From assembly GCA_041489155.1 (NCBI GenBank), contig JBGPQP010000005.1:17812-81811 (forward strand): 64,000 bases of DNA. The letters run 5' to 3'. Source of the stretch: Candidatus Aenigmatarchaeota archaeon. GTDB lineage: Archaea; Aenigmatarchaeota; Aenigmatarchaeia; QMZP01; QMZT01. Shown piece by piece: positions 31,477 to 35,768 of this stretch. Positions within the stretch are counted from its first letter, which is position 1, and every line of letters starts with the position of its first letter. The notes under the pieces were generated by a model that saw nothing but the letters and a program-made list of their open reading frames with translations, was not told the DNA's origin and searched no databases. A program made the translations under genes and the position numbers.

Positions 31477-33375
31477 CTATCCTATAAATATGGGCCTCTT
31501 GGTAAGAAGCCTGGGAAGCGGCAGCGCCTTGAAGGGCTTGCCTTCCGTCTGCTTCTTTATCATGTCTACAAACGCTTTCTGCGTATGTTTCTCGACCTTC
31601 CCTGTTTCCCTTAGTCTCACAGCAAGTTTGTTTTCAGTCAGTTCCCTTTCCCCGATAACGACGGCGAAGGGTACCCATTCAATCTCCGAGTCGCGTATTT
31701 TCTTCTGGACGCTTTCTTTTCTGTCGTCAACGTCGACCCGTATCCCTTCCTTCGCGATTTCCTCGGCTATTGCTTCCGTCTGCTTCAGGAACTTGTCTGA
31801 CACGGGGATGAACCTCGCCTGCGTTGGGCAGAGCCACAAAGGAAGGATTGGGTTCTTGCCTTTGGCCGATTCCATGTGGGCCTTTTCAAGCAAAGCATAC
31901 ATCACCCTTTCTATCGCGCCTGAAGGTGAGAGGTGAAGGATGATCGGATATTTCTTCGTGTTGTCGCTGTCCATGTACATTATGCCGTAGCGTTTAGCGT
32001 TCTCGACGTCTATCTGGTCCGTCGTCAGCGCTGCTGCTTTGTCAAGCGCATCGACGAAGTTCAGGTCGTACTTGAAAATGAAGTAGAAGAACTGCTTGCT
32101 CCACATTTCGAGCAGGACCGGCTTGCCTATTTTCTTGACAACAGTCTTCAGGAAATCTCTGTTATCATCGTAGAAATCTTTCACCACCCTGAGCGCGCCT
32201 TCCAAGTTTTCGTTCAGCGGCACGCCGACGCCATTCAGGATGTCCTTCGCCAGGTCCAGGCGCGTCAGCATCTCCCCCTTCGCCTGCTCAATATCCCTGC
32301 ACATCGCATGGCAATCAGGCATGGTGAACGCGCGAAGCCTGCGAAGTCCAGCGAGCTCGCCTCGCTGCTCCACGCGGAAAGAATAGCGCGTAAGCTCGTA
32401 CATTCTCATCGGAAGATTGCGGTAGGAAATATTCGCGTCCTTCGCCATCAGGAATTGTCCGAAACACGCTGAAAAGCGCAGGAATACGCGCTTGTTGGGC
32501 GTCTCGATTGTATACTGCCTCGCAGGGAAGCGGTTCAGATAATCCTTGAGCGCAGGATGCTCGTAATCATACATTATCGGTGTCTCGACTTCCATCCCGC
32601 CGTAACCGATTACCTTCCCGGTGACATATTCTTCCAGAAGCGATTTTATCAGCCTTCCCTTGGGAAGGAAGCGCAGGTTGCCCGGGTCGCTGCCGCTTTC
32701 GTAATCCACCAGTTCGAGCTTCCTCATCAAGCGCACGTGCGGAGGCTCTTTGTCAGCGACTCTCGATTTCGCCATCTCGTAACGGGCGAATTTCTCCAAG
32801 TTATTGTGTTTCGAAAAATCGAAGCCTTTCACATTCCCTTCTTCTATGCTGAGCTTGTGCAGCTTCCCTTCTATGTCAAGCACATACCAATCCGAAGCGA
32901 GCGTCTTCTCCTTCTCGAGCGCCTTTGAAACCTCGGCCTTCGCTTCCACCACGTCGTCTGCGACTATCTCCCTTGAAAGCTCGGAAAGCGGGTGGCCCTT
33001 TACGGCGATGGTGAATCTTTTGTAATAGCCGAAAGGCGCGCGGTGAACGCTGTACTTCATTCCCTTGAGCTGGGTTTCAACTCCTTTCAGAACAGTCAGG
33101 GCGGCGGACGGCGATGAAGGCGTTTTGCTCAGATGAACATAAGGGTAAACGACGATGTTATTTGCTTTCACTTCTTTCGCTACTTTGTCTATCTCCTCCG
33201 AAGTCTTGTCTATTATGGTCTTTTCCTTGCCTTCGTCATTTTTCTCCACCGCGGAAAAAACCACCAGCACGTCCTTTACGCTGCTTACTTTCTTTTCGAT
33301 TTCCTCCGCGTTTTTAATCGCTTTTTCTTTCGGTTCCCATTCTATGAAATCCGAATGCAACAACAGGATTTTCAT
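31477..33375 (-). CDS. thrS: Threonine--tRNA ligase, archaeal type with N-terminal editing domain
   Basis: YPYVHLS, RAPFGYYK, GHPLSELSR, RFSACFGQF, RAFTMPDCH, HLSPSGAIER; SD-like AAGGTGGTGG upstream. Confidence 0.95.
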   Translation of the reverse strand: MKILLLHSDFIEWEPKEKAIKNAEEIEKKVSSVKDVLVVFSAVEKNDEGKEKTIIDKTSEEIDKVAKEVKANNIVVYPYVHLSKTPSSPSAALTVLKGVETQLKGMKYSVHRAPFGYYKRFTIAVKGHPLSELSREIVADDVVEAKAEVSKALEKEKTLASDWYVLDIEGKLHKLSIEEGNVKGFDFSKHNNLEKFARYEMAKSRVADKEPPHVRLMRKLELVDYESGSDPGNLRFLPKGRLIKSLLEEYVTGKVIGYGGMEVETPIMYDYEHPALKDYLNRFPARQYTIETPNKRVFLRFSACFGQFLMAKDANISYRNLPMRMYELTRYSFRVEQRGELAGLRRLRAFTMPDCHAMCRDIEQAKGEMLTRLDLAKDILNGVGVPLNENLEGALRVVKDFYDDNRDFLKTVVKKIGKPVLLEMWSKQFFYFIFKYDLNFVDALDKAAALTTDQIDVENAKRYGIMYMDSDNTKKYPIILHLSPSGAIERVMYALLEKAHMESAKGKNPILPLWLCPTQARFIPVSDKFLKQTEAIAEEIAKEGIRVDVDDRKESVQKKIRDSEIEWVPFAVVIGERELTENKLAVRLRETGKVEKHTQKAFVDMIKKQTEGKPFKALPLPRLLTKRPIFIG

Positions 33376-33529
33376 CCGCCACCACCTTTACCTTTATTTT
33401 TTTGTTTTAGCCGTTAATTAAACTCCCGGCTGGCCGAGAACCGAAAGAATCAGTCCGGCCGCAGACCAAGAACTAACACGTCGTAGTGGTTGTCGTAGTT
33501 GTTTTAGTCGTGGTCTTGCCGGAGTTCAT
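33376..33529 (-). promoter_or_regulatory. Structured thrS 5' leader, attenuator-like
   Basis: Mutually exclusive complementary segments overlapping the uORF (see findings). Confidence 0.65.
33473..33529 (-). CDS. Thr-rich leader peptide (uORF) MNSGKTTTKTTTTTTTTC upstream of thrS
   Basis: ATG 33529 to TAG 33473; 11 of 18 codons are ACN using all four Thr codons; TATA-like TTTAAAA about 25 nt upstream. Confidence 0.8.
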   Translation of the reverse strand: MNSGKTTTKTTTTTTTTC

Positions 33530-33552
33530 GAAAATAATTTGGTCGTCAGATT

Positions 33553-34398
33553 TTAAAAACCTTTCAGAAACGAGTAAACACATTCCGGCAGTCTTTCGCT
33601 GTAGCCGCCCTCGAGAATCGCGAAGCGTGGCTTGTTGAGATCGGCTATCATCTTTGAGATTTTCGAATACGTGTCGACCTCGAGCTTCAGCCCCGCCAGC
33701 GGATCGCCTTCGAATGTGTCGAAACCTGCTGACACCGCTATCATATCCGGCTTGAACTTTTTTATTATCTCGAGCGCGACCTCGAGCTTCTGGAGGTACA
33801 GCCTTTCGTCCGTTCCGCTGTCGAGCGGGAAGTTGTGGCAGTTCGCTTCAGAATGCTTGCCCGTTCCGGGGTAGAAATTGCCGTACTGATGCAGGGAAAC
33901 GTAAATCACGTTTTTCCTGCCAAGGAAAATGTCCTGCGTGCCGTTGCCGTGATGCACGTCGATGTCGAGGATTGCAACCTTTGCTTCCCTTCGCAGCGCC
34001 TTCACAACAGCGATGGCGATGTTGTTGAAATAGCAGAAGCCTTCGAACTTCGCTCTGCCTGCATGATGGCCGGGTGGCCGCATTAGAGAGAAGGCTTTGT
34101 CTTCCTCGAGGGCGATGAACATCGCCCTTACCGCCGCGCCCGCGGATAGCCTTGCATGGTTGTATATGCTTGGCAGCGCAGGCGTTTCGGGGTTAACGAA
34201 ATTCCCCCGTTTTATGGTGTCTATCAGTTTTGGTGTATGGACGAGGAGCAGATCCTGTCTCGTGCAGGGTTCTGGCTTTACGAATTCGAAGTTCCCGGTT
34301 TTTCCCAGAAGCTCGTACGTCCTTCGTACCCGTTCGCTCGATTCGGGATGGCCTTGCATGTCGTAATTCAGGCATTCAGGCGAAAAAACAACCTTCAT
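33553..34398 (-). CDS. Histone deacetylase / AcuC family Zn-dependent deacetylase
   Basis: HPES, RPPGHHA, GFCYFNN, DIDVHHGNGTQ, SAGFD, LEGGY. Confidence 0.95.
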   Translation of the reverse strand: MKVVFSPECLNYDMQGHPESSERVRRTYELLGKTGNFEFVKPEPCTRQDLLLVHTPKLIDTIKRGNFVNPETPALPSIYNHARLSAGAAVRAMFIALEEDKAFSLMRPPGHHAGRAKFEGFCYFNNIAIAVVKALRREAKVAILDIDVHHGNGTQDIFLGRKNVIYVSLHQYGNFYPGTGKHSEANCHNFPLDSGTDERLYLQKLEVALEIIKKFKPDMIAVSAGFDTFEGDPLAGLKLEVDTYSKISKMIADLNKPRFAILEGGYSERLPECVYSFLKGF

Positions 34399-34454: not shown

Positions 34455-35768
34455 ATGATGGATCTAAGGAAGGTTTACGAATACTACTCCAGAGAGGACA
34501 TACAGAATTTCCTCCTGGAATTCGGCAAAGACAGGGAGGTTGTCGGCGTCTTCAGGAATGGCAATTTTTCACAGAGGCCGAACGTCTTGCTGTACCAGAA
34601 AGACATAACCGCCATGGTGAAGACCGGCGTAATAGAATTCCACGGCTCTCTCGAACGCTGGTCACAGCCAATGAGCCTCAGGTCTGATAATTATGAGCAG
34701 CTGAGGAAGGGATGGGATCTGATATTCGATCTGGACTGTAAGCTGTTCGAACACGGCAAGATTGCCGCCGAAGCTTTCATATGGGGCCTGAAAAAGCATG
34801 ACATACGGAGCGTGTCTGTCAAATTCACGGGAGGGACAGGGTTTCACATAGGCGTGCCATGGGAAGCGATTCCGAAGACCGTTGATTACAAACCCAGCGT
34901 GAGCCTCTATCCAGAGCTCGCGAGAAAGATTGTAATGTACCTCAGGGACTTTGTTTTCGAAAGACTGGAAAGAAATCTTTTCAAAAAATTCACAGCCGAG
35001 GAGATATCCGGCCAGATAAACAAGCCGCTAGGTAAAATTCTGACCGATGACGGCATGAACGTTTACGAGGTCGTTGATGTCGACCCGGTTCTCATTTCAC
35101 CTAGGCACCTTTTCCGCCTACCATATTCGCTGAATGGAAAGTCGTTCCTGGCGTCGCTTCCCGTCAAGCCGGAAAGGCTTGAAGGCTTTGAAAAAATGCA
35201 GGCAAGACCAGACACAGTTAAGGTGGAGAACAAGTACCTTGAGCCCGGCGAAGACGGAGAAGCAGAGTTGCTTATAGCAGAAACCATAGACTGGTTCATG
35301 AGGGCCAAGAAAAAAATTGAAGAGAGGAGCGAAAGGAGGCTGGAAATAACAAGACCCATCCCGGTCGAAAGCTTCCCGCCATGCATAAAAAACATAATGA
35401 ACGGTCTTTCTGACGGAAGAAAGAGGTCGATATTCATTCTTTTGAACTTCCTCCGCTCGTCCAAATGGACATGGGACGAAATCGAAAAATTCCTCATAGA
35501 ATGGAACTCGAAAAACAAACCCCCGCTGCGCGAGAGCTACATCCGCTCGCATCTGAGGTGGCACAGAGCAAGGAACAAGGAAGTTCTTCCGCCGAACTGC
35601 GCGAACGAGGGATGGTACAAGAATTTCGGCGTCTGTAAGCCCGATGAAAAATGCTCGAAGATAAAGAACCCGGTGAATTACGCCATAAGATCGATGACTG
35701 CCGCCAGGCAGGCGAAAGCACCGGCAGCGGGAAGAAAAAACTACAGGACAGCGAAGAAGGGGAAATAG
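34455..35768 (+). CDS. priSL: DNA primase, fused PriS catalytic domain and PriL C-terminal Fe-S domain
   Basis: WDLIFDLD, KFTGGTGFHI, RHLFRLPYSLN, then PPCIKNI...PPNC...C....C..IKNP. Confidence 0.9.
   Translation: MMDLRKVYEYYSREDIQNFLLEFGKDREVVGVFRNGNFSQRPNVLLYQKDITAMVKTGVIEFHGSLERWSQPMSLRSDNYEQLRKGWDLIFDLDCKLFEHGKIAAEAFIWGLKKHDIRSVSVKFTGGTGFHIGVPWEAIPKTVDYKPSVSLYPELARKIVMYLRDFVFERLERNLFKKFTAEEISGQINKPLGKILTDDGMNVYEVVDVDPVLISPRHLFRLPYSLNGKSFLASLPVKPERLEGFEKMQARPDTVKVENKYLEPGEDGEAELLIAETIDWFMRAKKKIEERSERRLEITRPIPVESFPPCIKNIMNGLSDGRKRSIFILLNFLRSSKWTWDEIEKFLIEWNSKNKPPLRESYIRSHLRWHRARNKEVLPPNCANEGWYKNFGVCKPDEKCSKIKNPVNYAIRSMTAARQAKAPAAGRKNYRTAKKGK

Follow-up and report, generated by a model that had tools for sequence, protein, structure and literature searches.

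A leaderless threonine-codon reading frame in a switchable RNA leader upstream of thrS as a candidate sensor of charged tRNA-Thr in Aenigmatarchaeota

How could an archaeon adjust the synthesis of its threonyl-tRNA synthetase (ThrRS) to the supply of charged tRNA-Thr? This question is raised by a locus of a Candidatus Aenigmatarchaeota archaeon, which we analyzed within a stretch of 64,000 nucleotides (nt) that is called the window here (GenBank assembly GCA_041489155.1, contig JBGPQP010000005.1, positions 17,812 to 81,811). On its minus strand a histone-deacetylase-family gene is followed by a 21-nt spacer, by a short upstream open reading frame (uORF) rich in threonine codons and, 97 nt after the stop codon of the latter, by the ATG of the ThrRS gene thrS (33375-33373). 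The Thr codons of this element, its reading frame, its promoter geometry and its complementary segments are conserved. With moderate confidence we interpret the element as a translated, leaderless leader ORF which would sense charged tRNA-Thr within a switchable RNA leader upstream of thrS, whereas our confidence in the output step is lower than in this sensor. DPANN archaea have minimal genomes and presumably depend on their hosts for amino acids, and the locus indicates cis regulation of an aminoacyl-tRNA synthetase in this group.

The reading frame at 33375..31477 encodes ThrRS, as it matches the archaeal editing domain (Pfam tRNA-Thr_ED, 4.4e-49), the class II core and HGTP_anticodon. The uORF ahead of it encodes MNSGKTTTKTTTTTTTTC, in which 11 of the 18 codons specify threonine, eight of them consecutively, and in which ACC, ACG, ACT and ACA are each present. 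Its coordinates, peptide, codon usage and distances had been given in a first-pass annotation of this DNA and were all found to be correct when the minus strand was read again. The same annotation regarded the Thr run as no simple DNA repeat. This holds, as all four ACN codons are used. The run also exceeds what chance would give: among the 15,675 ATG-initiated ORFs with 8-40 codons that the 1.13 Mb genome contains, the thrS uORF was the sole one with eight of eight identical residues and the sole Thr-rich one. The other 69 ORFs with at least six of eight identical residues were rich in Ser, Arg, Lys, Leu, Ala or Val. Further cognate-codon uORFs at aminoacyl-tRNA synthetase genes of this genome, which the annotation had proposed to look for, did not turn up in the scan of these 15,675 ORFs.

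The codon signature recurs in relatives. Loci from genomes of the window's family (f1) and from metagenomes gave 27 distinct leaders once duplicates had been removed, and the total set comprised 31 homologous leaders with 29 distinct uORF sequences, plus two divergent ones from the sister family f6. Over the 31 homologous leaders threonine accounted for 224 of 447 uORF codons (start and stop excluded), compared with 5.2% in long ORFs of the genome. The codons ACG (79), ACA (63), ACC (49) and ACT (33) were used in roughly genomic proportions, and the dinucleotide AC occurred 224 times at codon positions 1-2 but only 27 and 3 times in the other phases. The uORFs had 11 different lengths between 9 and 22 codons; every one of them was in frame from a conserved ATG to the stop codon, which was TAG in 30 of 31. 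Counted from the peptides, the first Thr codon was codon 5-7 in 28 of the 31 leaders. Only the Thr run and the first four codons were conserved within the uORF, the latter at all three positions because they form the switching segment S1 described below, and the C-terminal residues varied (C, R, F, L, W, A). Between uORFs of the same length (46 pairs) differences fell 173, 175 and 334 times on codon positions 1, 2 and 3, a count that is descriptive only because the pairs are non-independent. The third position was thus the freest, and a Thr run conserved upstream of thrS with synonymous variation, as the first reading of this DNA had anticipated, was indeed found. A short ORF that is enriched in codons of the sensed amino acid and keeps them as codons (50% Thr in 31 uORFs) is what characterizes a leader-peptide attenuator. 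An inventory of tRNA genes made with aragorn comprised 11 without introns and 30 with them. Thr(UGU) was listed, but so were a doubtful Thr(AGU) and the implausible 'Pyl' and 'Stop' tRNAs, and for lack of reliability this inventory of tRNA-Thr genes was left unused.

In family f1 the uORF preceded thrS in 15 of 22 assessable genomes (16 loci), and one further genome has thrS at a contig end. From a metagenome set of 42 thrS loci two were dropped for lack of upstream DNA; the uORF was present in 18 of the remaining 40, and all 18 belonged to the 21 loci that were at least 61% identical to the query. The sister family f5 carried it in four of 36 genomes (G035, G053, G060 and G050, the last with only three Thr). 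In f6, two of 14 had a more divergent, leaderless Thr-rich ORF (MSLSVTTTKTETTTA, MSPFDATTRNTQTITTA) located 219-275 nt upstream of thrS. No convincing uORF was found ahead of thrS in 60 genomes from 24 other families of the class; three of these 60 loci with at most four Thr overlapped tRNA-like sequence ('ACTACGGGGCT', read by eye) and were dismissed. Therefore, the Thr run before thrS is lineage-specific and inherited and no compositional artefact. In genus g9 one genome keeps the RNA with only two Thr codons remaining (MNSGFMIKTTMSR) and three others have no uORF. Two of these three retain the flanking boxes only and one has a different upstream region, so that the leader element seems to decay as a unit in this genus, as judged from sequence. 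An exact-pattern search of the order was too stringent and was discarded, as the copy in the window itself escaped it and more than half of its matches (11 of 20) were chance matches in other sequence.

Two forms of ThrRS exist within f1, even within one genus. Six enzymes (G002:C8, G003:C7, G011:C7, G015:C16, G016:C40, G019:C29) showed 58-66% identity in the N-terminal editing domain but only 27-28% in the catalytic part and were shorter (open frames of 571-728 aa); the Thr-codon leader is retained in five of these six genomes, all except G016. One genome of our set, G018, has two thrS copies with near-identical leaders (G018:C19:681-818; G018:C43:2108-2194), one behind a deacetylase-family gene and the other behind a propeller gene, which may reflect a strain mixture in the bin or a duplication.

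The position of the uORF relative to its promoter points to a leaderless transcript. Throughout the genome A/T-only 7-mers showed a sharp peak at -29 from the ATG. The profile of the 341 genes of this kind has TTTTWAAAA at -30 to -22, AA at -11/-10 (A 0.60/0.63) and T or C at -1 (0.78), and most mRNAs of this genome appear to be leaderless. A smaller gene set has a Shine-Dalgarno (SD) sequence at -11 to -9 and A/T boxes around -53 to -47. All three features of the profile are present at the uORF, where the A/T run of the box stops 21 nt short of the ATG, and also at its homologues, including those behind a different upstream gene; an initiator counterpart (CAATTAA...Y directly before ATG) was found in relatives. 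In a position weight matrix (PWM) search the uORF promoter of the window scored 18.5, compared with 12.56 for the 99.9th percentile of 323,296 random genome positions. With the start fixed at the A of the ATG, all 27 leaders reached at least the 98.3rd percentile and 25 of them at least the 99.5th. The box was found at the same distance in each of these 27 scored leaders, irrespective of the upstream gene. No SD motif was found upstream of the uORF in the locus sequence. We infer that transcription starts at the A of the uORF AUG from a canonical leaderless promoter. The leaderless transcript from a BRE/TATA-like box (BRE, transcription factor B recognition element) that had been proposed for this site therefore matches the promoter geometry of the whole genome.

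Folding of the leaders revealed four recurrent segments, S1 to S4 (Table 1), of which S2 starts about 8-12 nt after the stop codon in most leaders, as read from the folds. A further helix, P2, pairs Thr codons with the stop-codon region; in the folds its bases change yet stay complementary (AGACCA/UGGUCU here, GAACCA/UGGUUC in L006). In nascent transcripts ending about 36 nt past the stop codon, S1 pairs with S2 over P2 to form a hairpin with the whole uORF inside, which we call hairpin T. It was predicted in 30 of 30 leaders and in 19 of 19 type-A nascent transcripts, with free energies (dG) of -17.7 to -33.9 kcal/mol and a mean z of -2.45 against dinucleotide shuffles; 17 of 30 were below -2. 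For the full leader, the minimum-energy fold in most cases was a three-way junction composed of P1 (S1:S4, the AUG included), P2 and P3 (S2:S3). In this model P1 would close the junction and sequester the 5' AUG. S1 and S2 therefore have two exclusive partners each. Thus, at the computational level, the leader also possesses the second hallmark of an attenuator, namely exclusive pairings (S1:S2 with P2 versus S2:S3 and S1:S4), one of which overlaps the regulatory codons. Of four pairings listed in the first-pass annotation, the one between the 5' part of the uORF and the post-stop region as well as GGCCGG/CCGGCC and AACTCCGGC/GCCGGGAGTT are present and recur in relatives, whereas AGCCG/CGGCT is limited to the closest relatives.

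Because covariation detected by RNAalifold was weak and S4 was left unaligned, we used duplex swap tests of our own construction. These compare cognate with non-cognate segment pairs from nine hand-picked diverged representatives over 20000 permutations. For P1 the cognate duplexes had -12.3 kcal/mol versus -8.7 kcal/mol for the non-cognate ones, and 46 of 20000 permutations were as good. The corresponding values were -14.5 versus -12.4 kcal/mol for T (173 of 20000) and -21.7 versus -15.9 kcal/mol for P3 (0 of 20000). These sequence comparisons support all three helices. The S1/S4 pair AACUCCGGC/GCCGnGAGUU is replaced by pairs that are changed yet complementary, such as GCACUUUGGUA/UACCAAAGUGU in L082 and GAACCCU/AGGGUUC in L056; UACCCC/GGGGUA in G035 and AUGCAUC/GGUGCAU in G053 were read by eye. 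Accordingly, the swap tests found cognate-specific complementarity across diverged lineages for the mutually exclusive pairings, whose conservation had been predicted.

Table 1. Parts of the thrS locus in window coordinates, in the order of transcription
Feature	Coordinates	Strand	Remarks
Histone-deacetylase-family gene upstream of the uORF	33553..34398	-	Pfam Hist_deacetyl 3.7e-71
Leader promoter, BRE/TATA-like box GAAAGGTTTTTAAAA; overlaps the 3' end (final codons and TAA) of the deacetylase-family gene	33551..33565	-	
Promoter-proximal element and initiator AAATTATTTTC; AA at -11/-10, pyrimidine at -1	33530..33540	-	
uORF, leaderless, 18 codons + TAG: MNSGKTTTKTTTTTTTTC	33473..33529	-	ATG 33529-33527, TAG 33475-33473
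S1 AACUCCGGC (uORF codons 2-4), 5' switching segment; partners S2 (hairpin T) or S4 (P1)	33518..33526	-	
P2 5' arm AGACCA-C-GACUAA, Lys/Thr codons	33504..33516	-	
P2 3' arm UUAGUU-CU-UGGUCU, includes the stop codon UAG	33463..33476	-	
S2 GGCCGGA, begins 12 nt past the stop codon; partners S1 (hairpin T around the entire uORF) or S3 (P3)	33454..33460	-	
U-rich tract AUUCUUUCGG, loop of P3, immediately 3' of hairpin T	33441..33450	-	
S3 CUCGGCC, P3 3' arm; alternative is a short hairpin with S4	33432..33438	-	
S4 GCCGGGAGUU, distal partner of S1 (helix P1)	33421..33430	-	
A/T-only box TTTAATTAA; candidate TATA box of a proximal thrS promoter (second TATA box) and/or candidate A/U-rich tail to a terminator-like hairpin	33414..33422	-	
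Shine-Dalgarno-like GGUGGUGG of thrS	33379..33386	-	genome-wide SD peak -11 to -9
thrS, archaeal-type threonyl-tRNA synthetase, 632 aa	31477..33375	-	Pfam; orthologues in 41/41 relatives

How the folding of the leader might be turned into expression of thrS is the next question. Terminator rules in archaea differ from those of bacteria. A scan for bacterial-type terminators found three sites on this strand, compared with 0.5 +/- 0.7 in shuffles. These include two hairpins, one at 33469..33450 with TTCTTTCGGT behind it and one at 33447..33423 with TTTAATTAAC behind it. After hairpin T, at a distance of at most 5 nt, a U-rich window (at least five U in 8 nt) was found here and in 19 of 30 leaders, and the earlier statement that the hairpins have no U-tract behind them is thereby corrected. 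A short hairpin of the S3:S4 type, or P1 itself, abuts an A/U-only box in most leaders. This box (TTTAATTAA here; ATATATTA, ATATTTAA or TATATAG elsewhere) lies at a fixed distance of about 36-38 nt from the thrS ATG, and the spacing holds even where insertions part the box from S4 (L011, L064, L066, L067).

In the mechanism that we propose, transcription would begin at the A of the uORF AUG from the leaderless promoter, and a ribosome would have to engage the free 5' AUG before transcription of the leader is complete. Later, S1 would be locked, first with S2 in hairpin T enclosing the uORF and then with S4 in P1. If threonyl-tRNA were short, the ribosome would wait at codons 5-8 and cover S1 together with the 5' arm of P2; with S1 covered, P3 could form, and hairpin T and the S4 hairpins beside A/U-rich stretches could not. 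Our best guess for the output is that a free S1 would allow a hairpin beside a U-rich or A/U-rich stretch and thereby less read-through into thrS. A ribosome stalled on S1 would raise read-through and provide more ThrRS, in addition to what a basal thrS promoter at the second A/T box would yield. With plentiful threonyl-tRNA, or with no ribosome loaded, the 5' end would be captured, the uORF would be closed to initiation and read-through would be low. Translation of the uORF, stalling and every output step are thus what we infer.

In its most general form, which we put forward tentatively and would not yet back at even odds, the proposal is that archaea may possess a ribosome-mediated leader-peptide sensing of amino acids fitted to leaderless mRNA. 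A single pioneer ribosome would occupy the 5' AUG during transcription, and its delay at Thr codons 5-7 would decide between capture of the 5' end in a shut-off hairpin and its cover with read-through into thrS; the A/T box would then serve both as the weak-hybrid part of a hairpin-assisted terminator and as the basal thrS promoter. With its conservation and comparatively good support, the locus could be used to ask whether archaea employ transcription-translation coupling for regulation, in what way leaderless mRNAs could act as sensors, and how archaeal RNA polymerase behaves at a hairpin combined with A/U-rich signals.

Several results weigh against this interpretation. Among sequencing runs that contain the locus, a search listed 15 DNA runs and no RNA run. 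The uORF is dispensable because seven of the 22 genomes of family f1 are without it. RNAalifold found no compensatory pairs in 20 type-A leaders, in which P1 and P3 were invariant (P1 was recovered); in seven diverged leaders only P3 was recovered, with two compensatory pairs, and MAFFT left S4 unaligned. The swap tests with their nine representatives are therefore the sole source of covariation support, and two of the nine cognate P1 duplexes were weak (L080 -5.9, L052 -4.9). Pairing of the 5' end with the post-stop region also occurred in 40-73% of shuffles and is non-discriminating as a criterion by itself. Regarding the output, the U-rich tail is confined to the 19 of 30 leaders mentioned above, and the type-B leaders have no U-tract. 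To our knowledge, hairpin-dependent termination is not established for archaeal RNA polymerase, and neither is hairpin-assisted attenuation in archaea. A switch that masks the ribosome-binding site (RBS) was likewise unsupported, as a partition-function model of 26 leaders showed no consistent change in the accessibility of the SD sequence or the AUG. For the thrS SD, the mean unpaired probability was 0.42 in the ribosome-free state and 0.41 with the ribosome at the stop codon; placing a 30-nt footprint on the first, the middle or the last Thr codon gave 0.38-0.43.

The second A/T box belongs to these objections as well. In 25 of 27 leaders it had a promoter score that would place the start at -9 to -17 of thrS (the 95th percentile of the control was 8.6 for the best of 23 placements). 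From its position and score it follows that thrS probably has its own proximal promoter, and thrS may be independent of leader transcripts. The first-pass annotation had named a thrS transcription start downstream of the uORF as a finding that would speak against a leader-peptide attenuator. This applies in half, as a promoter-like box is there in 25 of 27 leaders and the start is a predicted one. An A/T-only octamer was also found in 38 of 70 convergent intergenic regions, and such boxes are therefore not exclusive to promoters in this genome. At convergent gene ends A/T palindromic hexamers were enriched (TTTAAA 6.4x, a strand-symmetrised value with no correction for intergenic A+T), which leaves TTTAATTAA undecided between promoter and terminator. 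In G035 of family f5 only 12 nt separate the last leader helix from the next start codon, and this interval has no box of promoter geometry; at least in this genome, the leader must therefore be a genuine 5' leader. Between it and thrS, G035 has a 68-codon ORF containing a CxxC...C motif (L024:3390-3593). This ORF has no relative among the other 90 genomes that were searched in the order, and the locus is thus not generalisable.

The possible independence of thrS leads to an explanation in which the two units are separate. Transcription of thrS would come from the second A/T box only, the upstream unit would be an independent short transcript (a terminator or insulator for upstream read-through, or a small RNA), and the Thr run would be a leftover of the C-terminal tail of a PQQ-propeller protein. 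The promoter score of the box and the distance to thrS that it keeps despite insertions are in line with this, as are the terminator-like sites within the leader and a long PQQ-propeller ORF that continues in frame and stop-free into the uORF in 14 of 27 loci. However, the uORF keeps its ATG, its promoter geometry and its Thr run also behind the deacetylase-family gene (10 loci, with a different frame and a stop codon 26 nt upstream) or other genes. It is always found beside thrS and never beside the approximately 20 other PQQ paralogues, whose C-termini have neither a TATA box nor a Thr tail. Moreover, three families have the run next to thrS and the 60 other genomes do not, a distribution that would be difficult to account for if the run had nothing to do with threonine, and G035 is at odds with a separate promoter. 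We therefore regard separate units as rather unlikely. A functional Thr-rich micropeptide unrelated to thrS regulation would agree with an ORF that is conserved and probably translated, but its length of 9-22 codons, its variable C-terminus and a conservation restricted to the Thr run and the first four codons, the latter at all codon positions as S1, leave this explanation very little probability.

Other explanations keep the link to threonine and change the output. A stalled ribosome might open a duplex that masks the thrS RBS on a long transcript, as in translational attenuation of the mycobacterial polycysteine type. The architecture is the same, namely a leaderless short ORF with a cognate-codon run in the accessible text of the mycobacterial study (bioRxiv 10.1101/834739), and in the folds of L001, L051, L063 and L064 the thrS SD has a complement in ACC-AC(N) Thr codons (GGUGGU/GUGGUC). 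Nevertheless, the model of 26 leaders described above found no consistent difference between ribosome states, and the SD lies some 30 nt away from the last helix, in an A-rich region that is largely unpaired, which makes this output improbable. Alternatively, ThrRS itself could bind the structured leader, in analogy to tRNA mimicry by the thrS operator of E. coli, and the Thr codons would then be of secondary importance. A point in favour of such autogenous control is the conserved three-way junction of the leader, in which the closing helix brings the 5' and 3' parts together. Another is a hairpin found in all 14 thrS leaders of f6, whose 7-nt loop nnUGUAA resembles the anticodon loop of tRNA-Thr(UGU) and which makes it plausible that thrS is autoregulated through protein-RNA contacts in this order. 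In the f1 leaders, by contrast, no anticodon-arm mimic (7-nt loop xU-NGU-Ax by the thrS RBS) was noticed by eye, with no dedicated loop search run. Furthermore, mimicry accounts neither for ACN codons that repeat in frame and vary freely at the third position nor for the conservation of ATG and stop codon or the leaderless promoter geometry, and we consider autogenous control of the f1 genes decidedly improbable. Our preferred reading hence remains the leaderless leader ORF that would respond to charged tRNA-Thr.

The f6 hairpin merits a description of its own. In all 14 loci (L017:1436-1503, L018:1436-1503, L021:1436-1503, L121:437-504 and ten more) a 6-bp stem GCAGYC/GRCUGC lies directly before the SD/ATG of thrS, and its loop (UGUAG in place of UGUAA in one locus) gives it a resemblance to the anticodon stem-loop of tRNA-Thr(UGU). 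A second UGUAA/GGUAA motif precedes the hairpin, and one pair shows a compensatory change (GC to AU, two sequences). By analogy with E. coli thrS, the hairpin is a candidate archaeal operator through which ThrRS would regulate its own synthesis. L122 (G047) and L123 (G046) have the anticodon-like hairpin plus the divergent Thr-rich ORF of leaderless geometry mentioned above. In this ORF the stop codon falls within the loop of ACAGC-UUAG-GCUGU; some 20 nt after the stop lies GGGAC/GGGGA, with which codons 2-3 (GUCCC) can pair.

Further observations concern the genes around the leader. The PQQ-like beta-propeller ORF of the 14 loci (L003, L004, L006, L010, L049, L053, L054, L056, L064, L066, L070, L077, L080, L098) has about 450 codons (...KSDYD-18 codons-) and runs in frame and without a stop through the leader promoter to end at the uORF TAG. 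The Thr run would therefore be translated also by ribosomes arriving from the upstream gene, and this read-in may be selected or a frozen accident. The genome G000 has about 20 propeller paralogues, many of them in head-to-tail arrays located outside the window (C3:391-2984, C3:73104-78371, C9:20482-25595 and others), and their C-termini (..KSEYDTNWVMFEDVMEGEEL) reach, or pass, the SD-led start of the next paralogue. In the window, the divergent neighbour of the deacetylase-family gene (34455-35768, plus strand) gave weak matches to primase families (DNA_primase_lrg 4.8e-07; LigD_Prim-Pol 2.2e-4, below its cut-off).

Ribosome-mediated attenuation is a textbook mechanism of bacteria, and the thrS leader can be compared with several of its representatives. 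Similar to the enterobacterial thrL (Rfam Thr_leader, RF00506) and other classical attenuators, it has a short cognate-codon-rich ORF amid mutually exclusive pairings upstream of a gene for the same amino acid. It differs from thrL in that it is found in an archaeon, is leaderless and precedes thrS rather than biosynthesis genes. Moreover, it has no canonical terminator of hairpin plus U-run in all lineages, but an additional helix P1 that would lock the 5' AUG and a probable second promoter downstream. Rfam matches were only sub-threshold: with 14.5 bits and E = 9.7 (33422-33525, minus strand) against a gathering score of 55, the leader is neither a member nor a homologue of Thr_leader, and this weak match is probably driven by the ACN run. 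The pheM leader peptide of E. coli pheST is a cognate-codon-rich attenuator too, which is bacterial, SD-led and equipped with an intrinsic terminator. By description, it is alike in placing a cognate-codon leader peptide ahead of an aminoacyl-tRNA synthetase gene. In E. coli the translational operator of thrS mimics the anticodon arm of tRNA-Thr, and in Bacillus thrS is controlled by a T-box. With both, the leader described here would share a control of thrS in cis by the balance of tRNA-Thr and ThrRS, although no T-box matched in Rfam at E up to 10 in 33000-34000. If our reading is true, the f6 anticodon-arm-like hairpin would mean that one archaeal order evolved both bacterial thrS strategies.

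Coupling of transcription and translation is established in archaea, as is factor-dependent termination (FttA/aCPSF1) at U-rich RNA, in part according to a recent review (PMC13675443). Among the papers listed by our full-text searches of the literature, none was found to describe an archaeal leader-peptide sensor of amino acids. The accessible text of that 2026 cross-domain review of transcription termination has no word beginning with 'attenuat' (PMC13675443), and that of an FttA structure paper has such a word only in its reference list. The closest parallel in architecture comes from mycobacteria. As far as the accessible text of Canestrari et al. goes, polycysteine leaderless short ORFs carry a cognate-codon run from the 5' AUG of the transcript, and a stalled ribosome is proposed to remodel the downstream RNA (bioRxiv 10.1101/834739). 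The thrS uORF is likewise a leaderless short ORF with a cognate-codon run, and promoter geometry alone would place its start at the 5' AUG of the transcript. The mycobacterial output, again in the accessible text, is the unmasking of a downstream RBS; in contrast, no RBS-sequestering duplex opened by a stalled ribosome appeared in the SD model of 26 thrS leaders, and domain, amino acid and target differ as well. In a domain for which our search found no described case, the thrS leader would be a variant of known bacterial leader-peptide control.

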